From an uncultured Gammaproteobacteria bacterium (GTDB taxonomy: Bacteria; Patescibacteriota; Patescibacteriia; Magasanikbacterales; UBA922), in the NCBI GenBank assembly GCA_964522435.1, contig CAZFUL010000002.1:44631-108630 (forward strand): a stretch of DNA of 64,000 nt, written 5' to 3'. The translations under genes and the position numbers were made by a program. Position 1 is the stretch's first letter. The number at the start of each line of letters is the position of its first letter. Below are positions 967-43,769 of the stretch, in pieces. Under the pieces are notes generated by a model. It ran no database searches, was not told the origin of the DNA, and was given only the letters and a program-made list of their open reading frames with translations.

Positions 967-1761
967 ATGATTGAATTACTTCAATTTCCTTTTATTCAAC
1001 GGGCACTTATTGGAGGCAGTATTATTGCGTTGTTGCTTGGTTGGATGGGAGTCTATGTGACCAGTAAACAAATGAGTTTTGTGGGTGAAGGGGTCGCGCA
1101 TGCCTCTCTTGCGGCTATTGCTTTGGCATTATTATTAGGCATACCACCACTGCCCACTGCGATTATCTTTAGTATCTTCTTAGGGATGGTGATGTTTTAT
1201 GTAGAAAAAAAATCAACTGTTTCTCGAGATACGGCTATTGGGATTGTTTTTTCTTTTGGGGTAGCCATAGGGATTATATTATTACAATTTTATGATGGCT
1301 ATGTTCCCGAGTTAATGAGTTTTTTGTTTGGAAATATTTTAACCGTGAGTACGCTCGATCTGGGTATTATGGCCGGAGTCACCGCAATGGTGGGAATGCT
1401 GTTGTATATATACCGAAGACAATTTTTGTTTAGTACGGTTGATCCAGAAGGGGCATATTTAAGTGGCATTCATCGAGATTTTTTTGAACTACTTATGTAT
1501 GTGATTACTGCCGTTTCTGTTGTGGTGAGTGTGAAAATGATTGGTATTGTTCTTGTGACGGCCTTATTAGTTATTCCGGCAGCAATTATGCGTTCGTTTT
1601 CTCGTTCATTTCGCTCGTTTGTTGTTGGAACAATGATATGTAGTTTTCTTATTGTGGAATTAGGATTATTTCTTTCTTTTTTTCTGGATTGGCCATCGGG
1701 CGCTACGATTGTTTGCGTTGGATCACTGATATTTTTACTCACTCGTTTTATAAAAAAATAA
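967..1761 (+). CDS. znuB: Metal ABC transporter permease, ZnuB-like
   Basis: 264-aa polytopic membrane protein directly downstream of znuC. Typical ABC-3 permease hydrophobicity. Confidence 0.7.
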   Translation: MIELLQFPFIQRALIGGSIIALLLGWMGVYVTSKQMSFVGEGVAHASLAAIALALLLGIPPLPTAIIFSIFLGMVMFYVEKKSTVSRDTAIGIVFSFGVAIGIILLQFYDGYVPELMSFLFGNILTVSTLDLGIMAGVTAMVGMLLYIYRRQFLFSTVDPEGAYLSGIHRDFFELLMYVITAVSVVVSVKMIGIVLVTALLVIPAAIMRSFSRSFRSFVVGTMICSFLIVELGLFLSFFLDWPSGATIVCVGSLIFLLTRFIKK

Positions 1762-1786
1762 GCAGGAGTACCTGCTTATTTTTTTT
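1760..1786. terminator. Bidirectional rho-independent terminator between znuB and the ZnuA-like gene
   Basis: Stem AAGCAGG / CCTGCTT with loop AGTA. A-run on the 5' side and T-run on the 3' side. Confidence 0.6.
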
Positions 1787-2699
1787 GAAGGATCGCTTCT
1801 ACATTATAGTTGATAAGATCAATATACGTTTCTGTTTCTTTTGATCCACCTAAGGGATCAAGCACGCCAATCGTAATATTATAATCATCTGCAAAGCGGG
1901 TAAGCACGCTAGAGGAGAGTTGTGGCTCACGATACACGCGGGTAACGTTGTGTTCTTCTATAATACTCTGTAACTCTTGCAAATATTGTGCGGTTGGTTC
2001 TTTTCCTGCAAATGGTTCCACTGTTGCTACAACGTTGATATTAAAATGATCAGCAAAGTAGGCAAAGGCGTTATGAAAGGTGATGATATTTTTATCCTCA
2101 AGCGTAGCAAGTTGTTCAGTCCAGATAGCGTCTTGTTCTTGTATACGTTGTTTTAATGCACTTGCCCGTTCACTATAAAGCGTTGCGTTATCCGGATCAT
2201 TTCCTGCAATATAGTTACTCATCGTATCAATAATGATAATCATGTTATTTGGATCAAGCCAGTAATGCGGGTCATAGGCTCCTGTTTCTTCTTCATGATG
2301 AGTTGCGTTATGGTCTTCCTCATGGTCATCATGATGGGTATATTCTTTAAGAGGAATACGTAGGTCGACCGTAATTTTTTGTGCGCTATCAATTTGTGGC
2401 ATGATAGCATCAACCCAGTTATCTAGCTCTTGTCCTATAGCAAATATAATATCAGCGCCTTGTGCTTTTTTAATTGTCGTACTTTTTGGCTCATACAAGT
2501 GTTCGCTTACCCCTGCAGGTAATAAAAGGACAACGTCTGTTTCATTTCCTGCAATAGTTTTTGCGACATCATAAAGGGGGTAAATAGTTGTTGCTACTTT
2601 TGGTTTTTGGGCGATAGGGCCACGGGGTTGTTGTATGATGGCATAATAGATTCCTGTGACGATGAGTACAATAATAAGTAAGGGGAGGTATTTTTTCAT
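1776..2699 (-). CDS. znuA: Periplasmic metal-binding lipoprotein, ZnuA/TroA-like, with His-rich loop
   Basis: Start trimmed to MKKYLPLLIIVLIV, a signal/lipobox-like N-terminus. The longer ORF overlaps the upstream MFS gene. His/Asp/Glu-rich loop HHDDHEEDHNATHHEEE is typical of Zn-binding ZnuA. Confidence 0.7.
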   Translation of the reverse strand: MKKYLPLLIIVLIVTGIYYAIIQQPRGPIAQKPKVATTIYPLYDVAKTIAGNETDVVLLLPAGVSEHLYEPKSTTIKKAQGADIIFAIGQELDNWVDAIMPQIDSAQKITVDLRIPLKEYTHHDDHEEDHNATHHEEETGAYDPHYWLDPNNMIIIIDTMSNYIAGNDPDNATLYSERASALKQRIQEQDAIWTEQLATLEDKNIITFHNAFAYFADHFNINVVATVEPFAGKEPTAQYLQELQSIIEEHNVTRVYREPQLSSSVLTRFADDYNITIGVLDPLGGSKETETYIDLINYNVEAILQKK

Positions 2700-2766: not shown

Positions 2767-3984
2767 CTATGTATTGGGGGAGGCAATTTGAGCTCCTTTA
2801 GGCATGCGGAAAAAAACAATCGTAATAATACACAGCAAGGAAGCAAGCATATACGGGTAGAGCATACTTTTTGTAATAAGGAGTGCCGCAATAAGCATAA
2901 TAGGAACTTCAAGGATACTTTTACATATATTAGTTAACGATAAACTCGTTGCTCTATTAAACGATTTCATTTTTTTATTAAGGTATGTGCTATACAGCGG
3001 GTTGCGTGTATTTTCTAGCATGGCAAAAAAAATAAAACAGCTGTAGAGAATATAGGGATTGGGTAATAACCATGCAAAGAGTAAAAAAAATACGGTCATG
3101 AGGGTTGTCATAGCGGTCATTCTATTGATTGTTTTTTCTAATGGTAACGAAATACGGGGAAGAATGTATCGAGAAATAATGTATGATCCTAATTGCATAA
3201 GTGACCAACCTATGCCAATAGCTAAGAGAGATATTCCCAGACTGCTGTAATACACTTGGGAATATTGCCACACCATAAGAGAGGCAATAAAAGGGAGCAG
3301 ACGATTAATAATTGCGTAGAGTATCTCATGATCTTTTTTTATGAGAATAACGGCATCATGAAGAATACCAGCGTTTTGTTCTTCGATATCGTGAGTATGT
3401 TGTGGTTCCGTAAGACGGAGGCTAAATATTGCTGCAATAAGGGTGAAACATATATCGAGAACAATGATGAGTTGAAATTGCCATTCTAATAAATCTTTTG
3501 CTAAAAGAACAGCGATGATAGGGGTGATAATTTTAAAAAATCGTTTAGCAGAATAATAATGAGATAAATGTTTTAATCCATGAGAACCGTCTTCGCCTAA
3601 TTCTTTGGCACTATCATAGAGCAATGCCTCATCTGTTCCAGACATCATCGCAACGTTAATACCATATAAGGCTGCCCCAATAGCAAAGATGATAAAAGAA
3701 TCAGCAAAAAAATAGAATACCCAATACAATAGGCCTAAGATAACTCCCAACATGATTGTTTTTTTTCTTCCCCAACGATCGGCGAGATAGCTCGAGGGTA
3801 CTTCGGTGAGTGTATTTGCAATAGCCCAAATTATTCCTAGGTATAGTATCTCAGATAACGAAAGTCCTCTGTGGAGATAAAATAATGAAGAAATTGCACC
3901 AAATAACCGGGCATTCATACATGCTTGGATCCAAAAGGTATAGGAGACATTCTTGCGTAACCCCTGAGCGCGTACGGCATCCAT
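2767..3984 (-). CDS. MFS transporter
   Basis: 405 aa, 12-TM-like hydrophobicity. MFS motif region LADRWGRKKTIMLG. Confidence 0.65.
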   Translation of the reverse strand: MDAVRAQGLRKNVSYTFWIQACMNARLFGAISSLFYLHRGLSLSEILYLGIIWAIANTLTEVPSSYLADRWGRKKTIMLGVILGLLYWVFYFFADSFIIFAIGAALYGINVAMMSGTDEALLYDSAKELGEDGSHGLKHLSHYYSAKRFFKIITPIIAVLLAKDLLEWQFQLIIVLDICFTLIAAIFSLRLTEPQHTHDIEEQNAGILHDAVILIKKDHEILYAIINRLLPFIASLMVWQYSQVYYSSLGISLLAIGIGWSLMQLGSYIISRYILPRISLPLEKTINRMTAMTTLMTVFFLLFAWLLPNPYILYSCFIFFAMLENTRNPLYSTYLNKKMKSFNRATSLSLTNICKSILEVPIMLIAALLITKSMLYPYMLASLLCIITIVFFRMPKGAQIASPNT

Positions 3985-5839: not shown

Positions 5840-8800
5840 ATGAGCGATTTTGTCCATCTTCACGTCCATTCCCATTATTCTCTTTTAAATGGGTTAACTA
5901 AGGTAAAAGACCTGGTAAAAACCGCGAAAAAACGTGGCTTTACGGCTATTGCCTTAACAGACTATGGCGCATTATATGGTGCCATAGAATTTTATCGTGC
6001 CTGTTTAGAAAACGAAATAAAACCAATTATTGGCTTTGAGGCCGCTATTGCGCCACGATTACATACAGATAAAGACCCTGAAAAAGATAAAGAGATCCAT
6101 AGTTTGGTGTTGTTGGCACAAAATTATGACGGGTATAGAAACTTGATGAAGTTAAGTTCCATTGGTCAAGTTGATGGGTTATTTTTAGATACCGCAAGAA
6201 TTGATAAAACACTGTTGAAAGAATATGGCAATAATATTATTGCCTTATCTGGATCTATGGATGGGGAGATTCCTAGTTTATTGCATAAAGGACATTATGA
6301 TAAAGCACTGCAAGTAGCAAAAGAATACAATACTCTATTTGGCCAGGATAATTTTTATTTAGAATTGCAAGATCATCCAGCAAAAGAAGGGCAGTTAGCG
6401 GTAAATACGCAGTTAATGCAATTATCAAAAGAAACGGGTATTCCGGTGGTAGCCACTCGAGATGTGCATTACTTGAATCCAGAACAAGCAGATGCGCAAG
6501 ATATTATGCGTTGTATTAGTGAAGGCTGGAAAGTGCACTATACCGATAGAGAGGATTATCGTCATATTGATCGTTCACTGAATACGGCTGAAGATATTAG
6601 TTCCCGTTTTCGTCATATCCCTGAAGCAATTCAAAATACTCGTCGTATTGCTGACAGAATACAAATTGATATCAAACTCGATGATTGGCATTTTGCGCCG
6701 GTACCATTGGATCCAGGAAAAACCTATGACGAGATGCTTCGCGATAATGCTTTTTTAGCTGCGCCGAGTTTCTATCCGGACATGGGAGAAGAAGTTGTTA
6801 CGCGGTTGAATTATGAATTAGATATTATTAAAACAAAAAAATATTCTCCCTACTTTTTGTGTGTGGCGGACTTTGTGCGGTATGCAAAAGAACAGGGAAT
6901 TGTAGAATCAACCCGTGGGTCAGCGGCAGGATCCCTTGTATCGTATGTATTAGGAGTGACAACGGTTGACCCGCTTCGTTTTAAGTTACCTTTTGAACGC
7001 TTTTTAAATCCATTTCGTCCTTCTGCTCCAGATATTGATACGGACTTTGCTGATGACCGTAGACAAGACATGATTGAGTATGTGACCAAAAAATATGGCG
7101 TTGATAAAGTGGCACAAATTATTACCTTTGGAACCATGCAAGCCCGTGCCGCTGTTCGGGATGTGGGGCGAGCATTGGGATTTTCGTATAACTTTTGTGA
7201 TCAAGTTGCCAAGTTGATTCCTCCTGGAGCACAAGGCTTTCCCATGACGATTGATCGAGCACTCCAAGAAGAGCCTGATTTAAAAAAATTGTATGATACG
7301 AATCCAGATGTGTCTCGTTTATTAACCTTGGCAAAACAAGTAGAAGGTTGTGCCCGCCATACCTCTATTCATGCGGCTGGGGTGGTGATTTCTCCAACAC
7401 CGCTGACCGATTACACACCAATACAGCGCGAAGTTGGGGGTGACAAAATTGTCACCCAATATGAAATGAAATCAGTCGAAGCTGCTGGCGTATTAAAAAA
7501 TGATTTTTTGGGTATCCGAAATTTATCTATTTTAGGAAATGCGGTTAATATTGTGAAGAAAACAACCGGGGATGATGTTGATATTTATCATCTGCCACTC
7601 GACGATCAAAAAGTGTATGCCATGTTAGCACGGGGAGAAACCATGGGGGTGTTTCAAATGGGAGGCTCTGGTATGACGCGCTGGTTAAAAGAACTGAAAC
7701 CCAACCGTATTGAAGATATTATGGCCATGGTTGCGCTGTATCGCCCAGGGCCAATGGAATCTATTCCAGAATATATTCGACGCAAATATAATCCAGCCTT
7801 AGTAGAATATCCTGATCCTCGTTTGGAAAAAATTCTCGAAGCTTCGTATGGGCTGCTCGTCTATCAAGACGATGTTATGTTAACTGCTATTGAATTAGCA
7901 GGCTACGATTGGATGGAGGCAGATAAATTTAGAAAAGCCATGGGAAAAAAGATTCCAGAAGAAATGGCAAAACAAAAAATACAATTTTACCAAGGATGTA
8001 AAACACATGGAAAATTAAAACAAGAAACCATTGATGCACTCTGGAGAGCCATTGAACCATTTGCTGCCTATGGGTTTAATAAAGCACATGCCGCAAGTTA
8101 TGGTATTGTTGCCTATCAAACTGCCTATATGAAAGCGCATTATCCGGTACAGTTTATGACCGCGGTATTGCAAGCAGAATCTGGCGATAATGATAAAGTG
8201 GCTGCGATTGTTGCGGAGTGTCGTCGTATGCATATTGATGTGCGTCCGCCAGATGTGAACGAAAGTTTTAAAAGTTTTGCCATGACCTCTGCACAAGGGG
8301 AGCCTGGTGTTATTCGGTTTGGATTAATGGCGATTAAAAATGTGGGTGAACATATTTGTGAAACTATTTATCGAGAAAGAAAACAAGGCGGCGCGTTTAC
8401 GAGTCTGGAAAACTTTTTAGAACGGATTCAGGATAAAGACATGAACAAACGCTCATTAGAGCATTTAATTAAGTCTGGTGCGCTTGACTGTTTTTCAGAA
8501 GATCGTGGCGTCTTATTATCTAATTTAGAGCACTTGTTATTTTTTAACAAGCAAGTGAAAGAAGCAAGCACGAGTAATCAAGGGTCATTATTTGCGGGTA
8601 CCTCAATGGCATTGGATCATAAGGTGGTGTTAAAACCGGCTGCAACCGCGACCTTAGAAGAAAAATTATTGTGGGAAAAAGAATTTTTAGGGATCTATGT
8701 GTCTTCTCATCCCTGTTTACCCTTTGAAAAACGATTAAAACAGGTTATTACTTTTTTGCAAGATATTGAATCTAGTCCACGGGATAGTTGGGTGGTGGTG

Positions 8801-10475: not shown

Positions 10476-10549
10476 TGTATCGCCAGGGGGAATCGAACCC
10501 CCGTTATCGGGATGAAAACCCGATGTCCTAACCACTAGACGATGGCGAC
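10476..10549 (-). tRNA. tRNA-Glu (anticodon UUC)
   Basis: Reverse complement GTCGCCATCGTCTAGTGGTTAGGAC...TTCGATTCCCCCTGGCGAT folds as a cloverleaf. Anticodon loop TTTTCAT gives UUC. Resembles canonical bacterial tRNA-Glu. Confidence 0.8.
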
Positions 10550-10565
10550 ATAGATGAATGCAAAT

Positions 10566-10594
10566 AGTATAATGAAGTCAAAAACGTTTGTCAA
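10566..10594 (-). promoter_or_regulatory. sigma70-like promoter for tRNA-Glu, TTGACA-N17-TATACT
   Basis: Read on the minus strand: TTGACA, a 17-nt spacer, then TATACT about 15 nt upstream of the tRNA 5' end. Confidence 0.6.
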
Positions 10595-10610: not shown

Positions 10611-10707
10611 TCCCTTTACAGCATACAAGGACGAAAGCAACTCGCATAGGGTGCCAGATGCACCCTATGCTGCGACTGCTTTTTTTGCCTGTATGCTGTA
10701 GCGGGAT
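10611..10707. repeat. 97-nt long-hairpin repeat element, copy A
   Basis: Imperfect long hairpin with inner stem GCATAGGGTGC-CAGAT-GCACCCTATGC. A 95%-identical copy lies at 27406-27503. Confidence 0.7.
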
Positions 10708-10734
10708 ATCATATAGCAGTATGATTAAGCCCCC

Positions 10735-10763
10735 TTGACACTCGTTCCTTTATCCGATATACT
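10735..10763 (+). promoter_or_regulatory. sigma70-like promoter for rplJ-rplL, TTGACA-N17-TATACT
   Basis: Exact consensus hexamers. About a 150-nt leader precedes rplJ. Confidence 0.6.
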
Positions 10764-10912
10764 CTTTCCATAACTTACCATAGACAGTAGCTTCTCGAGG
10801 ATATCGGGATTAAATACGCTACCGAGGTATACTAAGGAAACATTCTATATGTTTCTTTACTAAAGGTCGTATACCTTCCTTCGTCTGTGGTTATTAAGCC
10901 ACATTTTTTTAT

Positions 10913-11431
10913 ATGGCAAAAACAAGAGTACAAAAAGAACAATCAGTAGGCGCATTGGTAACAGGGTTGCAATCTGCAACATCCGTTGTCTTTGCAAACT
11001 ACCAAGGACTTTCTGTTGCTGATATGGAAACCTTGCGTGCACAATGTCGAGAACAAGGCATTACCTGTATTGCAAGTAAAAAAACCTTAGTAAAAACTGC
11101 GTTGAAAAGCGCTGGTTTAGAGGTAAATACCAAATCATTCAACGGAGGTATTGCCACGTTCTTTGGAGCTGACGAAGTAAGTGCACCAAAAATTGTTGCA
11201 ACATTTGCAAAAGATCATGAAAAAGTCACGATCTTTGGAGGGGTATTAGAAGGATCATATATCGATAGTGCGCAAGTAAAGGCATTAGCGCTTCTTCCTT
11301 CAAAAGAACAATTGTTGTCTCAATTGGTTGGAACACTCAACGCGCCAGTATCTGGATTTGTCCGTGTATTGTCTGGAAACCTTCGTGGTTTGGTGACAGT
11401 ATTACAGGCAGTAAAAGAACAAAAAGCATAA
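10913..11431 (+). CDS. rplJ: 50S ribosomal protein L10
   Basis: 172 aa with typical L10 sequence. Immediately upstream of L7/L12. Confidence 0.85.
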   Translation: MAKTRVQKEQSVGALVTGLQSATSVVFANYQGLSVADMETLRAQCREQGITCIASKKTLVKTALKSAGLEVNTKSFNGGIATFFGADEVSAPKIVATFAKDHEKVTIFGGVLEGSYIDSAQVKALALLPSKEQLLSQLVGTLNAPVSGFVRVLSGNLRGLVTVLQAVKEQKA

Positions 11432-11451
11432 TAATTTAATTGTATTATCAT

Positions 11452-11859
11452 ATGTCAGAAGAAACAAAAATGGTAGAAGTACCAGAAAAGTTCAAAGCAC
11501 TTGTTGAACAAGTGGAAAAAATGTCAGTTCTCGATTTATCAGAATTGGTAAAAGTTCTCGAAGAAAAATTTGGTGTAAGTGCAGCAGCTCCAGCAATGAT
11601 GATGGCAGCTCCTATGGGCGGCGCAGCAGCTCCAGCAGCTGAAGAAAAAACTTCTTTCACTGTTGAATTAGTTGATGCTGGTAGTAACAAAATTGCTGTT
11701 ATCAAAGTAGTAAAAACAGCAACCGGCCTTGGATTAGCTGATGCAAAAGCATTAGTTGACGGCGCACCAAAAGCAGTAAAAGAAAATGTTTCTAAAGAAG
11801 AAGCAGAAGCATTGAAAGCAGAAATCGAAGCAGCTGGTGGAAAAGTAGAATTGAAATAA
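11452..11859 (+). CDS. rplL: 50S ribosomal protein L7/L12
   Basis: N-terminal dimerisation helix. Ala/Pro-rich hinge [24 protein letters not shown]-terminal domain [16 protein letters not shown]...[12 protein letters not shown]. Confidence 0.9.
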
Positions 11860-26436: not shown

Positions 26437-26516
26437 TTCTCCAGTATTTTTTTGTAAAAAAATGCACTGGGGATGGCACGCAACGGGGTGGGATGTGGTT
26501 GTTGCGTGGTTTCTCC

Positions 26517-27257
26517 TTAGTTGGCGGCGTCAACCCCAGGGTCATCAGCCTCAGCCGCTCGATAATCGGGTGGTGGGTGGCAGACGACGTCCCCTTCTTG
26601 CAAGGGGTAGGGGCCGCCCTCTGCTGCCCCTTCAAACAGGGGCTGATTGAGGCTGTTGTTCCGCAACATCGCGGTGTAGTTGAGGCCGTACACCGCCGCA
26701 TAGCGGCCGAGGGTATCGGGGTCCTCTTCCTTGACGATCCCGTAGAGAAGAGATCCACAGCGCCTTGCGTCTTTGCGCTCGTTGTTGCTGGGTTGCGGCT
26801 TCTCTTCCTCTGGTTCAACGAGCGCTCCGGTCTTTTCATCATAATCTTTGGGGACAAAGTGTCCCAAGACGTCACCCGCTGGGTCGGCGAGCCCGGCGTT
26901 CAGACGCAGGAGCGTGTGTTCGTCTGAATTGTGGTAGATAATAAAACCGGTTGCCACGAAGAGCAAGGATGCTCCGACCTGCCACTTCCAGGGGAGCCGA
27001 GGGAATGTGCCGAGGTACACGATTGCTGCATGTACCGTCACCCCCAGAAAGATGATCCCGCTGAGCATTGGGAAGAAATTCTGGGCGCCAAACACCGCCG
27101 ACCAGGCAGTGCAGAAGATGAGCGTCATCGTTCCCCTGAGGAAGTTCTTCTGGGCTTTGGTAAACGGAGCTGTTTTCTTCAGGGGAGGAGGTTCTTCTTC
27201 GGGAAACTCCTGAGGGGGAGGTTCAGTGGAATCTGCTGGAGTGTATTTTTCTGTCAT
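26517..27257 (-). CDS. Compositionally foreign membrane protein: Pro/Glu-rich N-terminus, three TM helices, C-terminal soluble domain
   Basis: Coding GC about 58-60% against a background of about 40%. Codon bias CTC/CCC/GGG/AGG. Own promoter and a GAAGGAG ribosome-binding site. No family recognised. Confidence 0.55.
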   Translation of the reverse strand: MTEKYTPADSTEPPPQEFPEEEPPPLKKTAPFTKAQKNFLRGTMTLIFCTAWSAVFGAQNFFPMLSGIIFLGVTVHAAIVYLGTFPRLPWKWQVGASLLFVATGFIIYHNSDEHTLLRLNAGLADPAGDVLGHFVPKDYDEKTGALVEPEEEKPQPSNNERKDARRCGSLLYGIVKEEDPDTLGRYAAVYGLNYTAMLRNNSLNQPLFEGAAEGGPYPLQEGDVVCHPPPDYRAAEADDPGVDAAN

Positions 27258-27354
27258 GATGTTTCTCCTTCGGCGCTGAGGGGGGCGCCGAGATCTGTTG
27301 TGTATAGATCATATCCCTCTGTTTACCTCCAGTTAGAGAGAAATACGATGTTCG

Positions 27355-27383
27355 ACCCTAGCGCAGATTGGGGTTTTTGTCAA
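27355..27383 (-). promoter_or_regulatory. sigma70-like promoter for the foreign ORF at 26517-27257, TTGACA-N17-TAGGGT
   Basis: Read on the minus strand. A 5'UTR palindrome TCGGCGC-TGAGGGG-GCGCCGA at 27270-27291 lies between the promoter and the ribosome-binding site. Confidence 0.45.
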
Positions 27384-27405
27384 GCTAGGGGGGATATCCT
27401 AACGA

Positions 27406-27503
27406 TCCCTTTTCAGCATACAAGCACGAAAGCAACTCGCGTAGGGTGCCAGATGCACCCTACGCTGCGACTGCTTTCTTTGCCTGTATGCTGTAGCGGG
27501 ATA
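27406..27503. repeat. 97-nt long-hairpin repeat element, copy B
   Basis: 95% identical to 10611-10707. The inner stem GCGTAGGGTGC-CAGAT-GCACCCTACGC keeps its pairing through compensatory changes. Confidence 0.7.
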
Positions 27504-35297: not shown

Positions 35298-35343
35298 AGC
35301 TGCACAACTGAACCGGAAGTTCCGGAACGTAAGGAGGGATAGC

Positions 35344-35898
35344 ATGTCAATTAGCTTTGGATTGCGTCGTTTTCTGCAGCAGCTCCGCTACGATGAGCTC
35401 CGGCTGTTCCAACAGTTCACACAGATGGCTGGTACGGGAGATCGCCTGTGTCTGAAAGATATTCCACCGGAGAAGGGAGAAGCGGTGAGCGCCTTCTTTG
35501 CACTGTTGGTGGAACAGGATATCCTCACCCTCGTGAGCGAACAAGGGGCACATGGGAATATCTGGCGTCTCAACCGGCGTTTGTATGACCAGCTGCTTCC
35601 TGCCAGCTACCAGACCCCCAAGGGGATTGTGCTGCTGGTGGCACAGGAATTCCAGCAGCCTGTGGCACATATTTTGGGTCATGAACACCGCAAACCTGCT
35701 GTGTTTGCCACGAAAGTGGTTGCCTGGCTCATGTACAACAATGGCCGGGGCACGACCTCCCAAGCTGATATCGGTAAGGAGCTGAACCGGGCCCAGTCAA
35801 CCGTATGCACCGATATCATCTTCATTGGGCAGGCAATGCTCGAAGATCCGGCGTTCAACGCTCGGGTGATGCGGTTATACGCCCGCATCTACGGCTGA
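35344..35898 (+). CDS. Compositionally foreign putative DNA-binding protein: N-terminal winged-helix-like segment and C-terminal HTH
   Basis: Coding GC about 55% with CTG/GGC/CGC codon bias. C-terminal HTH-like segment TTSQADIGKELNRAQSTVCTDI. Strong ribosome-binding site. Confidence 0.55.
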   Translation: MSISFGLRRFLQQLRYDELRLFQQFTQMAGTGDRLCLKDIPPEKGEAVSAFFALLVEQDILTLVSEQGAHGNIWRLNRRLYDQLLPASYQTPKGIVLLVAQEFQQPVAHILGHEHRKPAVFATKVVAWLMYNNGRGTTSQADIGKELNRAQSTVCTDIIFIGQAMLEDPAFNARVMRLYARIYG

Positions 35899-36035
35899 TT
35901 TTCCCACCTGAAACGAGAGAATCCCACCTTTCAGGGCGGCAATTCTCGTTTCCCAAGACGATGCCACCCAATCTCTGTATATACTCGTATGTATGTAGAG
36001 ATTGGAGAACAACGGCATCGTTTTGTGAAAAAATA

Positions 36036-37436: not shown

Positions 37437-38345
37437 ATGATTTCTTTTCTTCGTATTATCCGATTTGCGTTGCAGGACATGGTGCGTAACCTGAGCTTGT
37501 CCTTCATGACATTGCTGATTCTTATTCTCATGTTATTGTCTATCAATACCCTTATTATTGTGCGGGTATTTACTGACCAGACTATTGAAACCGTGAAACA
37601 GCAAATAGATGTGAGTGTGTATTTTCATCATGAAGCAAAAGATGACAGTATAGAAGAAATGCGCCAATATATTACTGCCTTTCCAGAAGTTACCGATGTA
37701 AGCTATTACAATAAAGAACAAGTGTTAGAACAATTTCGTGAAACACATAAAGATAATCCAGATATTATTGCCTCCTTGTCTGAATTAGCAGATAATCCGC
37801 TTGGCGCCACCATGATTATTAAAACGCGTGATCCAGCAGATTACAAAAAGGTTATTGATGCGTTAAATGTTCCGGAGTATGACGGTATTATTGAAGCAAA
37901 AACCTTTGCAGACACAGAGCAAGCCATTAGCCGAGTGACGCTCATTACCAAACAAGTAGAACAAGCGGTATATGCCTTAACGGCCTTGTTTGCCATTATT
38001 GCCTTCTTTGTTATTTTTAATACTGTACGCGTCGCCATTTATACCCAAAGAACAGAGATTAGTATTAAAAAATTGGTCGGCGCAACAGATTGGTTTGTGC
38101 GTGGTCCGTATATTGTAGAATCAGTTTTATTTACCATCCTGAGTGTTGCGATAACAACTGGGATTATGTTTTTTGTCATTCGCTTTTTAGACCCCTATGT
38201 GAGTGTATTATTGAATAAAGAGGCATTCTTGACAAATTACGTTGAGTCTCATATACTGGTGCTCATAGCGACTCAATGTATCGTGGTTTTCTTCTTAACG
38301 ATTGCCACCAGTGGGTTAGCAATGAGGAAGTACCTTAGAACGTAG
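37437..38345 (+). CDS. ftsX: Cell division permease FtsX
   Basis: 302 aa. N-terminal TM, periplasmic loop, three C-terminal TM helices. Directly follows ftsE. Confidence 0.75.
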   Translation: MISFLRIIRFALQDMVRNLSLSFMTLLILILMLLSINTLIIVRVFTDQTIETVKQQIDVSVYFHHEAKDDSIEEMRQYITAFPEVTDVSYYNKEQVLEQFRETHKDNPDIIASLSELADNPLGATMIIKTRDPADYKKVIDALNVPEYDGIIEAKTFADTEQAISRVTLITKQVEQAVYALTALFAIIAFFVIFNTVRVAIYTQRTEISIKKLVGATDWFVRGPYIVESVLFTILSVAITTGIMFFVIRFLDPYVSVLLNKEAFLTNYVESHILVLIATQCIVVFFLTIATSGLAMRKYLRT

Positions 38346-38398
38346 TTGTCTAAGTTATATAGGATATACCGCCTACGCTAAAGCTACGGCGAACACAG

Positions 38399-38469
38399 TC
38401 GGGGATCGTCTAACGGTAGGACTCTAGGTTTTGGTCCTAGTTATCGGGGTTCGAATCCCTGTCCCCGAG
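38399..38469 (+). tRNA. tRNA-Gln (anticodon UUG)
   Basis: TCGGGGATCGTCTAACGGTAGGACTCTAGGTTTTGGTCCTAG...GGGGTTCGAATCCCTGTCCCCGAG. Anticodon loop TTTTGGT. Confidence 0.7.
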
Positions 38470-38576
38470 CAAAATATAAATACACCCATATGGGTGTATT
38501 TATATTTATGATAGTGAAAGGGATTCGAAGGGCGCGAGAGCCCCGACTAAATGTCGGGGCGGTGCGCAGCGCCCCG

Positions 38577-38593: not shown

Positions 38594-38605
38594 GGGGGAA
38601 TCCCT

Positions 38606-38634
38606 GTCCCCGAGCTAAAACAAAAAGCGGCCAA
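38606..38634 (+). terminator. Rho-independent terminator
   Basis: AAAAAGCGGCC-AACA-GGCCGCTTTTTG. Confidence 0.7.
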
Positions 38635-38727
38635 CAGGCCGCTTTTTGTTTATATACATTTGACACATTTTCTCAGCGGGTGTAATATCCCCTATAGGGG
38701 GATATATAATAAATTATTTTTATTTCT

Positions 38728-42528: not shown

Positions 42529-42574
42529 AATTTTTTATTTAATTTAAATTATATTGAAAATCTTAAACAAAAAA

Positions 42575-42604
42575 CCCTGCACTAGAACGGTGCAGGGTTT
42601 TTTA
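42575..42604 (+). terminator. Rho-independent terminator of the cop operon
   Basis: CCCTGCAC-TAGAACG-GTGCAGGG followed by TTTTTT. Confidence 0.7.
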
Positions 42605-42713
42605 TCCTGTTTTCATTTTTATGACAACGAAGATTGATACAAATGAAAATGGGCTGGGGGAGAGTCCAGCTCTCCCACCCTCCTATTTTTTTGTGCAGTG
42701 GCTAATCCTGCGG

Positions 42714-43133
42714 CTAGCGGCGGCGCGTGAGTCCGAATTTGAAGAACTCCCACAGAATCGCGCCAAACACGTCATTGTGGATCTGGTGGATCTGCCGGCA
42801 TTCGCCAATCAGTCGCGGATGCGTGATGCTCTCGAAGCCCCGGGGCATCAAGAAGTCATCATCGGCGATGCCCGCCACGATGGCCGCGTCGAAGATGTCG
42901 GTGAACGCCGCTTCTTCCTGGTCGGAAGAAAGCCCCTGAAACAGCCGCTCCCAGGCCGTGAGCGCCTTGGCGCTGCTCCGTGAAAACACCCACGTCCAGA
43001 AGGTTGGTCTCGGCAGCGCGACCCAGCCCGCATCTGTCTTTGCTTGAGTGCTGATTGGAGGTCGCTGTTTCGGGAAGGTGCTGAAGTATTTCACCCTGTC
43101 CCCGTGGTTGATACCTGTGATCAGGAAGATCAT
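42714..43133 (-). CDS. Compositionally foreign small soluble protein (140 aa), unknown function
   Basis: Coding GC about 58%, CTG/GCC/CGC bias. Start MIFLITGINHGDR, preceded by CCAAGGAG. The upstream GTG-extended ORF was trimmed. No family recognised. Confidence 0.5.
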   Translation of the reverse strand: MIFLITGINHGDRVKYFSTFPKQRPPISTQAKTDAGWVALPRPTFWTWVFSRSSAKALTAWERLFQGLSSDQEEAAFTDIFDAAIVAGIADDDFLMPRGFESITHPRLIGECRQIHQIHNDVFGAILWEFFKFGLTRRR

Positions 43134-43174
43134 GCGTTGCTCCTTGGTGGATATGGCAGTATTGCCATGACCGC

Positions 43175-43203
43175 AGTACACAAAAAAAACGAGCTTTTGT
43201 CAA
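43175..43203 (-). promoter_or_regulatory. sigma70-like promoter for the foreign ORF at 43133-42714, TTGACA-N17-TGTACT
   Basis: Read on the minus strand. 5'UTR palindrome ATGGCA-GTAT-TGCCAT at 43153-43168. Immediately upstream is an array of CAATTAACA / TGTTAATTG repeats at 43205-43290. Confidence 0.4.
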
Positions 43204-43280
43204 GCCGAGCAATTAACATTTAACAATTAGCAATTAACAAATTTGTTTATTAATTATGTATCCTAAATCAACATCGTTTG

Positions 43281-43769
43281 TTAATTGATTTCCACAATAG
43301 TAAAAATTTTTTTATTGAATGTAATTGTTTCTCCCAATTTTTTGCCAAGTAATAGATTCCCCAAGGGAGAGGTATGAGAAATAATACCTTTTGCCGGATT
43401 CGTTTCTGCTGATCCTAAAATCGTATAGCTTCGTTGCTCTGCCGTATCACTCATGATAGTAACGGTATGACCAATCTGCACGCGGTTGTTGTCTTGTTGA
43501 GGAGAAATAATCTGCGCATGATTCAGTTGCGCCTCTAATTCTAAAATAGTCTGGTTGATTCCACGCAGCCGACCTTTGGCTAATTGATATTCAACGTTTT
43601 CAGAAAAATCACCCATCTCTGCTAGGCGACTTACTTCTTGTGCAGCAGCAGGGCGTTCTGCATAGAGGCGGTCTAATTTTTTTTGTAAGGCCTCAAATTT
43701 TTGCTGGCTTAATATATTATCCCGTGTTTGATGGGTGTATTTGCCAGGTTTGCGGTAAGGGAGTTGCAT
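43281..43769 (-). CDS. greA: Transcription elongation factor GreA
   Basis: N-terminal coiled-coil (EALQKKLDRL) and C-terminal FKBP-like domain. 162 aa. Confidence 0.8.
   Translation of the reverse strand: MQLPYRKPGKYTHQTRDNILSQQKFEALQKKLDRLYAERPAAAQEVSRLAEMGDFSENVEYQLAKGRLRGINQTILELEAQLNHAQIISPQQDNNRVQIGHTVTIMSDTAEQRSYTILGSAETNPAKGIISHTSPLGNLLLGKKLGETITFNKKIFTIVEIN

Follow-up and report, generated by a model that had tools for sequence, protein, structure and literature searches.

An orphan gene in an AT-rich chromosome of Candidatus Magasanikbacteria (CPR/Patescibacteria) probably belongs to a self-contained accessory-gene cassette, running from promoter to terminator at 42633-43203 of the window (the whole 64,000-nucleotide stretch of DNA that was analysed). 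The parts of this statement differ in strength. The orphan at 42714-43133 is almost certainly a real gene, judging by its codon-position pattern and its homolog; that 42633-43203 forms an autonomous unit is very likely; acquisition of the unit, horizontally or by exchange, is somewhat favoured by its composition and setting. The features to which the argument refers are as follows, in window coordinates.

Up to 42528: copZ-like gene, on the copper-operon side of the cassette
42569..42603, both strands: bidirectional terminator of host type, with a 14-bp perfect stem and A- and T-runs; it closes the copper operon
42633..43203, minus strand: whole cassette, bounded by the -35 hexamer and by the far end of the 3' stem-loop; alignable with locus L081, 3344-3958
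42640..42697, minus strand: extended 3' stem-loop, the predicted intrinsic-type terminator of the cassette itself (terminator scan, folding)
Within 42651-42680, minus strand: core hairpin GGGAGAG-CUGGA-CUCUCCC, with an A-tract and a U-rich tract on its sides
42621-42983, plus strand: antisense ORF of 120 aa, a shadow frame and not a gene
42714..43133, minus strand: CDS, 139 aa and a TAG stop; the protein begins MIFLITGINHGDR
43140-43147, minus strand: Shine-Dalgarno sequence CCAAGGAG, 6 nt before the ATG at 43131-43133
43146..43171, minus strand: conserved block GGTCATGGCAATACTGCCATATCCAC, located where the transcript is predicted to begin
43153-43168: palindrome ATGGCA-ATAC-TGCCAT in the gene strand, the core of that block; the plus strand reads atggcaGTATtgccat
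43175..43180, minus strand: -10-like hexamer TGTACT
43198..43203, minus strand: -35 hexamer TTGACA, followed by AAA
43204..43280, minus strand: AT-rich spacer between the greA stop codon (43281-43283) and the cassette promoter, with repeated CAATTAAC/GTTAATTG boxes
43281-43769, minus strand: greA, adjoining the cassette

The gene and its strand

The composition of the gene sets it apart. Coding GC is 0.590, in keeping with the 58% first noted (about 0.57-0.59 against 0.40 for the window), and GC1/GC2/GC3 are 0.54/0.46/0.77; the neighbours greA, copA and clpB have GC of 0.39-0.40 and GC3 of 0.27-0.34. The impression of a gene compositionally alien to its surroundings is thus borne out, and a 50-nt GC profile delimits a GC-rich block with sharp edges at about 42650-43150. 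The earlier note had the ORF in the right place; its length of 140 aa counts the stop codon, and the protein has 139 residues.

ORF length gives modest support for coding: when the 571-nt stretch was shuffled by mononucleotides 2000 times, its stop-free run of 161 codons was reached in 33 cases. The weight of the case for minus-strand coding lies with the homolog P0001 and the codon-position pattern. Identity between the gene and P0001 is 0.61/0.60/0.37 at the three codon positions; synonymous sites are saturated; 30 of the 60 identical residues are encoded by differing codons; and reading frame, start and stop are all kept. The start codon is supported by an N-terminal alignment that begins at M1, and by the AAGGAG that precedes the ATG in each.

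The gene is the minus-strand ORF. The ORF on the plus strand is the high-GC shadow frame that it had been taken for: its GC1, at 0.74, reflects the GC3 of the sense frame, and it has no family match in Pfam or NCBIfam. An antisense ORF of the same phase occurs at L081 (3325..3735), where it covers another part of the gene. The earlier note had allowed that its reading would fall if the plus-strand ORF were the real gene; nothing was found in favour of that ORF.

Control elements conserved above the protein

The single homolog lies at L081, a locus unrelated to the window (L081 and L082 are one contig, assembled twice independently, by NCBI and in Logan). That contig is AT-rich, with a host GC of about 32%; the neighbours are RelA_SpoT-, TspO- and DUF2177-type genes, and a copper operon is absent from the vicinity. 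Even so, the element order is the same in both places: TTGACA promoter, TCATGGCAATnnnGCCATAT, AAGGAG, CDS, extended terminator hairpin. The first of the conserved motif blocks is the -35 hexamer and the last is CATTTGTAT/CAAT. In this one pairwise comparison between two family members, the 5' control block is identical at 46 of 60 positions (77%), against 37% at third codon positions, and the 3' block is 62% identical; the flanks beyond the cassette align at 0.47-0.50, to be set against a shuffled baseline of about 0.49 that was measured on other segments. The discrete cassette proposed in the earlier note is supported accordingly: the only homolog, elsewhere, bears the same promoter, palindrome, Shine-Dalgarno sequence and terminator. 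The comparison of homolog neighbourhoods that had been suggested as a check finds P0001 in an unrelated contig with the cassette order retained.

The -35 hexamer is identical at L081 (3344-3349). The -10-like hexamer, 17 nt from it, has four of six consensus matches; it lacks the A at position 2 and so went uncalled in a strict promoter scan. Its counterpart at L081 is TTTACT, at equal spacing. TTGACA-17-TGTACT can be regarded as a predicted promoter that is conserved in the homolog. Between promoter and AAGGAG, the GGTCATGGCAATACTGCCATATCCAC block has as its L081 equivalent TCATGGCAATtgcGCCATAT, the differences being confined to three central bases; the consensus is TCATGGCAAT-N3-GCCATAT, and the conserved 5' block of the cassette reads GGTCATGGCAATNNNGCCATAT. 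The 5'UTR palindrome and the strong ribosome-binding site, both picked out at the start, are indeed there, and AAGGAG is kept at L081, 8 nt 5' of the ATG at 3430. Folded as RNA, the 5' hairpin has 6 bp and is thermodynamically unexceptional (-10.8 kcal/mol, z = -1.5); the palindrome may act as a stem-loop at the 5' end of the RNA, or else as a dyad operator.

The string TCATGGCAATNNNGCCATAT was tried as a wider 5' motif and discarded: it had five viral-contig matches, and a reversed-order control of equal composition also had five, so that there was no enrichment. A phage match at L083, an anecdote, places this string 4 nt past a perfect TTGACA-17-TAATAT promoter.

At the other end, the 3' stem-loop of the window folds at -28.2 kcal/mol (z = -2.5), and the terminator scan gives a minus-strand match at 42670-42653. 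The 3' end at L081 has the same architecture made from another stem sequence (GGGAGAAA/UUUCUCCC; z = -3.4), and the outer pairing differs between the two (CUG/CAG versus AAAAAU/AUUUU). On the greA side, the terminator scan found no terminator in the 43204-43280 spacer, and the spacer shows no conservation at L081. Searching 42640-43200 with Rfam 15 gave nothing at the gathering threshold; at E <= 10 the GC-rich block gave only short chance matches of snoRNA or IRE size. The stronger sub-threshold matches all lie at 42539-42670, and those of Thr_leader type reflect the host terminator hairpin.

These elements suggest how the unit would work. The TTGACA-17 nt-TGTACT promoter would start transcription at or just before the conserved 5' element; this element would either stabilise the mRNA as a stem-loop or act as an operator over the transcription start; the strong AAGGAG would drive translation of a soluble 139-aa protein; and the long A-tract, GC-hairpin and U-tract would end the transcript. 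As no terminator separates greA from the cassette, read-through from greA probably also transcribes it.

The slot beside greA and the origin of the cassette

The position first assigned to the gene, after the copper-resistance operon terminator and before greA, is confirmed: the cassette lies between the greA stop codon and the bidirectional terminator that it shares with the copper operon. Its neighbours are copZ, copA, csoR, greA, a gene for a DUF11 protein, and ftsX. Between tRNA-Gln and greA, the window has a repeat of the tRNA-Gln 3' end, the csoR-copA-DsbD/cupredoxin-copZ operon and the cassette; at two other loci (L035 and L056), greA, tRNA-Gln and ftsX are adjacent. The terminator at 42569-42603 probably served greA before the cassette split them.

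The slot between tRNA-Gln and greA is variable. In other Magasanikbacteria it is empty, or holds a GIY-YIG-like gene, or holds unrelated GC-rich orphans; other GC-rich orphan ORFs occupy the position 3' of greA at L005/L010, L015/L020, L031 and L069. The string TTGACAAAA, which is the cassette -35 plus AAA, also lies just 3' of greA at L005, L010, L015 and L013. A profile run against six-frame translations found no relative of the cassette gene at 80 Magasanikbacteria greA loci. More widely, about 35 small ORFs rich in GC and in GC3 occur in 22 of 81 Magasanikbacteria stretches. No viral relatives of the islets designated A and B were found, and a search of the literature for such a GC-rich islet pattern brought up nothing relevant.

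Most likely, a complete expression unit came in by insertion or exchange out of a rare pool of mobile genes, which would make the cassette moron-like but chromosomal. The earlier note called the cassette foreign. That is plausible; the part of the claim that would make it a recent horizontal acquisition is unproven, since syntenic orphans remain GC-rich despite deep divergence (29-41% identity) and high GC alone is then no proof of recent import. The cassette borders showed neither mobility machinery nor a target-site duplication nor an att site.

The alternative that the gene is native, a fast-evolving lineage-specific gene whose GC-richness is maintained by selection or biased conversion and whose relatives are unsampled, is unlikely. 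On this view Magasanikbacteria would keep a class of small GC-rich genes with conserved structured UTRs, of which this gene would be one; the 35 or so small ORFs just described speak for it. Syntenic homologous pairs from different species encode proteins that are 29-41% identical, versus 81-84% for greA, at a GC3 of 0.8-0.95; the 3' flanks of these syntenic orphans are 74-83% identical, above their CDS; and the TTGACAAAA promoters 3' of greA in several genomes are of host consensus. Against it, the 80 greA loci yielded no relative; the only homolog stands in a differing gene context; and across genomes the slot 3' of greA either lacks an orphan or has one of five or more unrelated ones, which looks like gain and replacement and not like vertical descent.

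Three further accounts fare worse. The cassette might be a MITE- or PATE-like non-autonomous element with a passenger ORF, its ends being a 15-nt inverted repeat (42686-42700/43174-43188; TTTTTTTGTGCAGTG / CAGTACACAAAAAAA, 87% complementary) that brackets the GC-rich block, with hairpins near both ends. This is very improbable: the repeat arms are explained functionally, as promoter spacer/-10 and as terminator A-tract; the hairpins at the two ends have unrelated sequences; no transposase was found nearby; there is no target-site duplication, and a second copy turned up neither in the window nor among 1.3 Mb of related loci; among 12 loose matches, those with at most two mismatches outside the element are only at unrelated sites; and L081 keeps the repeat only partly, as TTGTGT/ACACAA. 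In an AT-rich genome, a GC-rich island is a classic signature of non-coding RNA, and a structured RNA with an incidental ORF would suit a GC-rich islet in an AT-rich genome that has conserved structured ends and no protein family match. It is hardly credible in the face of three-base periodicity in both composition and divergence, of a frame, start and stop that are conserved while half of the identical residues are synonymously recoded, and of Rfam matches in the block that do not rise above chance. Equally far-fetched is an assembly chimera or contaminant fragment in a CPR contig. The GC shift is abrupt (over about 50 nt at both edges) and the genome of the window is missing from protein collections; but the block corresponds to exactly one expression unit, whose -35 and Shine-Dalgarno signals are of host type, the unit recurs in the independent, twice-assembled AT-rich contig, and many independent MAGs have islets of a comparable kind.

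A whole unit gained by insertion or exchange recalls several known systems. Phage 'morons' are autonomous promoter-ORF-terminator units between genes, with deviant base composition; the concept reportedly comes from work on lambdoid phages by Juhala and others in 2000. Morons and the cassette alike have a single ORF and a terminator of their own, lie between unrelated transcription units, differ from their neighbours in base composition (0.59 versus 0.39-0.40 GC here), and have no role that is evident from context. The sigma70-type promoter of a moron may have its counterpart in the predicted TTGACA-17-TGTACT promoter, whose -10 is imperfect. The terminator of morons is factor-independent, and the cassette has one of that type by prediction, its architecture conserved at L081. 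Morons, however, lie in phages or prophages, and the cassette lies amid chromosomal housekeeping and copper-resistance genes; unlike a moron, it had no relative in 2.9 million viral contigs or in GenBank phages, is GC-richer than its host, and has control elements conserved above the protein.

The cassette resembles tRNA-linked islets in that it lies in a region that varies among relatives and has tRNA-Gln as its anchor. The last 18 nt of tRNA-Gln are repeated exactly, at 38453-38470 and 38598-38615 only, and the repeat encloses about 130 bp. This repeat was considered as an att boundary of the cassette and rejected: the cassette is about 4 kb beyond it, and its own borders lack any att-like repeat. 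The ORF list for 38-48 kb, in which some of the ORFs were scanned against Pfam, showed nothing that resembled an integrase. Integron cassettes share with it the small single-ORF format, an imperfect 3' palindrome and the presence of different ORFs in the slot across genomes. They are, however, normally promoterless, whereas promoter-like signals are present here and an array is not; direct reading of 42625-42713 found no attC core sites (GTTRRRY, RYYYAAC; GTT/AAC).

The protein and the biology of small episymbionts

The predicted protein is soluble (the highest Kyte-Doolittle 19-residue mean is 0.97), has a mass of 16 kDa and a pI of 8.0, and contains much Phe and Trp. Exhaustive phmmer against about 1.8 billion representative proteins found P0001 as its single true homolog (E = 4e-20; 47% identity over residues 29-138); the three other matches (P0002-P0004) are repeat-protein artefacts. 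In a word-indexed search of 5.8 billion clusters the 139-aa query found nothing, and P0001 or the two-sequence profile found only P0001. No relatives were seen by tblastn against plasmids and GenBank phages, in genome, metagenome and viral contig scans with protein and profile (2.9 million viral contigs among them), or with the profile in six-frame translations of all fetched loci. Pfam, NCBIfam (E <= 1 to 10) and PADLOC gave no match, PHROG none below E = 0.3, and a profile search of PDB sequences none at E <= 10. By these searches it is a two-member family without detectable relatives or fold.

The structure prediction and Foldseek search that had been proposed as a check gave no usable match. 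AlphaFold2 reached a pLDDT of 37.9 with the two-sequence alignment and 33.3 for P0001 alone, both models being unusable; Foldseek of the pLDDT-38 model against PDB found nothing below E = 4.8, and the model is too weak to argue for a new fold. The earlier note saw in the N-terminus a Rossmann-like start and a hint of a small hydrolase or transferase. Neither is confirmed: there is no glycine-rich loop and no GxGxxG; the first 30 residues are the least conserved, sharing with P0001 only M1, G7, I8, Y16, F20, P21, R24, P25 and T29; and no match to a family profile in Pfam or NCBIfam, to a PDB sequence or, by Foldseek, to a structure was obtained. Its other judgement, that no catalytic motif or fold could be assigned, agrees with the family, PDB and structure searches, and the homology to a housekeeping family that it took as counter-evidence was not found. 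Our guess is that the protein has a conflict or accessory role and not a housekeeping one.

What the two proteins do share lies towards the C-terminus. H105-x6-C112-x3-H116-x2-H119 is invariant in both, as are R98 and LMPRG (95-99), and C112, H116 and H119 are spaced i/i+4/i+7 on a predicted C-terminal helix. The favoured guess at the biochemistry, a doubtful one, is that the protein is small and alpha-rich and that C112, H116 and H119, plus H105, would form a mononuclear metal site. Helix-borne Cys/His sites of the CsoR/RcnR type provide a parallel, by analogy only: the cassette protein has an invariant H-C-H-H set, with C/H/H at i, i+4, i+7 of a predicted helix, and a CsoR-regulated copper operon adjoins the cassette in the window. 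However, the L081 homolog has no copper genes around it, the sequence shows no similarity to the CsoR/RcnR family, and spacing and size differ. The R-x4-6-H motif of HEPN-type RNases, which lies in an all-alpha four-helix domain, may have a counterpart in R98-x6-H105, invariant in both proteins; there is no profile similarity, the model (pLDDT of 38) is unusable, and no helix is predicted in the N-terminal third.

Taken alone, the cassette is a well-defined orphan accessory gene, ordinary in itself and no new kind of system. It nevertheless offers a clean two-member family, whose invariant His/Cys cluster lends itself to testing. Conservation of promoter, leader and terminator above the CDS, in two unrelated contexts, is unusual, and points to selection on the unit or to its transfer. 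The cassette is also one case among the recurrent GC-rich orphan islets in the AT-rich genomes of Magasanikbacteria. It is conceivable, as a rather speculative extension, that these islets form a CPR-specific pool of GC-rich single-ORF units inserted or swapped at preferred slots, such as that 3' of greA, each with a fast-diverging orphan CDS behind a promoter and a structured 5' UTR, and ahead of a 3' UTR or terminator that is likewise structured. The non-coding ends, more constant than the proteins, could then act as regulatory RNAs or provide homology arms for exchange. CPR bacteria are host-dependent and their genomes are tiny; in a dedicated set of small, strongly expressed proteins that turns over rapidly, one would naturally look for functions in host interaction or defence. 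If the pool is real, it would be an undescribed way for ultra-small episymbionts to carry and turn over genes for conflict or host interaction.

A minus-strand gene with a single homolog

The unit beside greA, cassette C, has a GC-rich block with sharp edges (at ~42650 and ~43150) and holds an ORF with a GC content of 0.59; GC1, GC2 and GC3 are 0.54, 0.46 and 0.77, against a GC3 of 0.27-0.34 in the neighboring genes.

Features of cassette C
42633-43203, minus strand: the cassette, 571 bp
42714-43133, minus strand: ORF of C, 139 codons and a TAG stop
43140-43147: Shine-Dalgarno sequence CCAAGGAG
43153-43168: palindrome ATGGCA-N4-TGCCAT
42621-42983, plus strand: antisense ORF

The Shine-Dalgarno sequence and the palindrome are both present, as the earlier note described. 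The length of the ORF is by itself only modestly unusual (reached in 33 of 2000 shuffles). That the minus strand carries the real gene, as the earlier note also had it, is borne out by comparison: an exhaustive HMMER search with the C protein against 1.84 billion cluster representatives gave four matches, three of them artefacts (long repeat proteins with many short matched stretches) and the fourth, P0001, a genuine homolog (E = 4e-20). Pairwise BLASTP aligns the two at 47% identity across residues 29-138, with one gap. In the codon alignment, first, second and third positions are 61%, 60% and 37% identical, and different codons are used at 30 of 60 identical residues; the pattern reads as a signature of purifying selection on the protein, with synonymous sites saturated. 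The stop codons of the two genes line up. The N-termini can be aligned as well (M1, G7, I8, Y16, F20 and P21 in common), and this supports the ATG at 43133 as the start of C. P0001 is annotated in the database with too early a start, inside its promoter; translation really starts at the ATG at L081:3430, which has AAGGAG in front of it. The plus-strand ORF was rejected as a gene: its GC1 of 0.74 mirrors the sense GC3; it begins outside the GC-rich block; and its counterpart in L081, the contig encoding P0001, spans another part of the gene. It is a high-GC shadow frame, as had been supposed.

The C protein (15.95 kDa, pI 8.0) lacks hydrophobic segments (maximum KD19 0.97) and is notable for 14 Phe and 5 Trp. 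Searches with models of protein families, structures and defence systems gave no match, and the Rossmann-like start suggested in the earlier note is not borne out; the family is new but tiny. AlphaFold runs gave pLDDT of 38 and 33; the sequences are too few, and a fold search with such models is uninformative. Between C and P0001, the conserved core covers residues 37-138.

Motifs of the conserved core
W37-V-x-L-P-x-P-x-F
A55..L58-x-A-W61
F77-T-x-I-F-D-x-A-I-x-A-G88
L95-M-P-R-G99
S102-I-x-H105..E111-C112..I115-H116-x-I-H119..V-F-x-A-I-L..F-F-x-F-G-L-x-R-R

A metal site may tentatively be proposed, because H105, C112, H116 and H119 are invariant in both proteins and, in the C-terminal helix of both low-confidence models, C112, H116 and H119 are spaced i, i+4 and i+7. 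R98-x6-H105 fits a loose HEPN motif; nothing else points to HEPN.

The cassette as a conserved unit

The 9-kb L081 was independently assembled as Logan contig L082. Its background GC is ~0.30-0.35, rising to 0.44-0.54 in the region of the P0001 gene. None of the neighbors has a counterpart around C: they are small membrane proteins, TspO, DUF2177, OmdA, DUF1398 and a RelA_SpoT-domain protein of 1036 aa. The two loci can nevertheless be aligned in the non-coding DNA flanking the gene.

Elements common to C and L081, 5' to 3'
1: TTGACAAAA
2: T-run, then GTGT(T)TACT
3: (C)GG(C)-TCATGGCAAT-NNN-GCCATAT
4: AAGGAG, ATG, CDS, TAG
5: CACAA-rich A-tract
6: GGAGGG(Y)GGGAGA hairpin TCTCCCC-GCCCA
7: CATTTGTAT-CAAT

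The 5' block, from the -35 to just beyond the palindrome, is identical in 46 of 60 aligned columns, and the 3' block in 51 of 82; in the 60 nt beyond either cassette end identity is 0.47-0.50, close to a shuffled baseline of 0.49 that was measured on other segments. The 3' element forms the same long interrupted stem-loop in C (z = -2.5) and in L081 (z = -3.4). Its structure is conserved beyond sequence, since the stems differ in sequence yet fold alike: the core is GGGAGAG/CUCUCCC in one and GGGAGAAA/UUUCUCCC in the other, the outer stem A5U/AU4 and CUG/CAG. The 5' element differs solely at three central bases, which would fit a hairpin loop or a dyad operator whose center is uncontacted; in folding energy alone it does not stand out (z = -1.5). 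If the spacer is 17 nt and transcription starts ~7 nt past the -10, the foot of this element would be the first part transcribed. C thus looks like a discrete, well-delimited unit running from a predicted promoter to a terminator.

Two paralogous genes for 72-aa membrane proteins, ~80% identical by eye, lie at 1766-1984 and 3069-3287 in L081, both to one side of the P0001 cassette, and bracket a block of genes for TspO and further membrane proteins; the end of the second is just upstream of the cassette. The flank is a locally duplicated accessory region.

The interval between tRNA-Gln and greA

The window is part of an AT-rich chromosome (GC ~40%) with housekeeping genes, among them clpB, ftsX, greA, three tRNAs and a gene for a sigma factor. 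Because the closest relatives of its GreA (50-65% identical) come from MAGs that are assigned to Candidatus Magasanikbacteria, Magasanikiibacteriota or Patescibacteria, the host is a CPR bacterium. 'Uncultured Gammaproteobacteria', which heads many of these records, is a label given by submitters to contigs of this one clade. GTDB species representatives include no close relative, and its proteins are absent from the large protein collection searched.

In several related greA loci (L035 and L056, for example), a convergent tRNA-Gln and then ftsX come after greA; in L035 the three genes, from greA to ftsX, lie at 974-1465, 1854-1925 and 1948-2850. The window has ftsX/tRNA-Gln at 37437-38470 and greA at 43281-43769, with three things in between: an exact 18-nt copy of the tRNA-Gln 3' end, 128 nt beyond the tRNA; a copper operon of host composition (csoR, copA, a DsbD_2-cupredoxin membrane protein and copZ), its copA 70% identical to that of the related locus L020; and cassette C. 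The last 18 nt of tRNA-Gln(ttg) (38399-38470), GAATCCCTGTCCCCGAGC, recur at 38598-38615 across a GC-rich spacer (up to 0.72 GC), and the repeat looks like an att-type scar of integration or excision at tRNA-Gln. The palindrome ATATCCCCTATAGGGGGATAT at 38685-38705, which overlaps the -10 (TAATAT) of the promoter before the csoR-like gene, probably serves CsoR as its operator in the copper operon.

C lies between the greA stop codon and a perfect bidirectional terminator (42569-42603); on the minus strand, terminator prediction gave nothing between greA and C. Insertion between greA and its terminator would be the simplest reading; greA transcripts would then run into C. The AT-rich spacer (43204-43287) contains four CAATTAAC/GTTAATTG boxes, two in tandem with a 14-nt period and one, inverted, overlapping the greA stop codon. 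L081 does not share these boxes.

Six other loci (L005, L010, L015, L020, L031 and L069) also have a GC-rich ORF just 3' of greA, none related to C; those of L005/L010 and of L015/L020 form two separate families, and in these four a TTGACAAA(A/C) promoter is predicted within 20-30 nt past the greA stop. Most other greA loci have an ordinary convergent gene there. Since the position is occupied now by GC-rich ORFs of separate families, now by ordinary genes, it is a variable slot and one in which GC-rich genes recur. In L015 (~10512-10575) and L020 (~10517-10580), a short hairpin (GTCGCAAAGAC, then a T-run, in L015) follows the TTGACAAAA promoter after greA within ~10 nt; it could represent a very small sRNA, or else an attenuator for the GC-rich ORF behind it. 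Even the 'minimal' greA-tRNA-Gln arrangement of L035 contains a GC-rich ORF of ~80 aa (1560-1805, minus strand; Shine-Dalgarno GGGGGAGAG) between the greA terminator and tRNA-Gln; L056 has a small GIY-YIG-like ORF, assigned by eye, in the same place.

We favor mobility of C, because the family is absent from all 80 related Magasanikbacteria greA loci, its homolog sits in a different context, and the unit is conserved as a whole. Functionally C resembles a phage moron, as a self-contained module (predicted promoter, ORF, terminator) that differs in composition from the genes on either side and has no relation to them; unlike a moron, it lies outside any prophage. It differs from an integron cassette in having its own (predicted) promoter and no attC core sites. 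Readings of C as bounded by the tRNA-Gln repeat, as a MITE or as a known RNA were rejected. A phage contig (IMGVR_UViG_3300004806_000007) carries at 8537-8556 TTGACA-17-TAATAT, 4 nt and then TCATGGCAATAACGCCATAT, arranged as in C and preceding small early-type ORFs; this likeness may be coincidence, because motif matches in viral contigs number five, as they do for the reversed control.

GC-rich orphan units in Magasanikbacteria

Two more islets in the window are built like C, each with a predicted TTGAC(A/T)-17-TAnnnT promoter, a leader hairpin and a strong Shine-Dalgarno sequence.

Further islets
~26445-27500, minus strand: islet A, ORF 26517..27257, 246-aa orphan protein with hydrophobic segments
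~35300-35950, plus strand: islet B, ORF 35344..35898, 184-aa orphan

Islet A has a TTGACA-17-TAGGGT promoter (predicted) and a long leader, and its protein has no Pfam, PHROG or PADLOC match and no viral relative. Between the clpB terminator and this promoter is an 80-nt GC-rich imperfect hairpin (27414-27493; CAGCATACAAGC...GCCTGTATGCTG), with no Rfam match at gathering score. Islet B has a TTGACT-17-TAGATA promoter (predicted) and the palindrome CCGGAA-G-TTCCGG in its leader; its protein matches the DnaA C-terminal helix-turn-helix below threshold at residues 95-156 (PF08299, E = 1.8e-4; 21.9 bits, cut-off 31.5).

Across 1.26 Mb of Magasanikbacteria greA neighborhoods, 22 of 81 stretches contain such small GC-rich, GC3-rich ORFs, ~35 in all, with no Rfam family and, among those tested, no Pfam domain. 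Homologous pairs occupy syntenic positions in different species, with far quicker divergence in their proteins than in GreA: 41% identity (GreA 84%) in L015/L020, 29% (GreA 81%) in L014/L020. GC3 is nevertheless still 0.8-0.95, with 74-83% identity between the 3' flanks. The L015/L020 orphans directly 3' of greA (10707-11483, 258 aa, GC3 0.95; 10708-11454, 248 aa, GC3 0.81) stand in genomes of 38-42% GC, with a 5' leader hairpin and two 3' hairpins ~70-83% identical. High GC in these bacteria is thus either maintained or repeatedly re-imported.

As such pairs stay GC3-rich despite deep divergence, composition alone cannot date an acquisition. The earlier observation is correct, and its interpretation is largely right, apart from the Rossmann hint and the word 'foreign': a real gene in a well-delimited cassette, conserved as a unit in L081, stands, and its foreign origin is unproven. 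As a single case, C is nothing out of the ordinary among orphan accessory genes; of more interest is the pattern across the class, in which Magasanikbacteria carry GC-rich orphan units whose non-coding ends are conserved.
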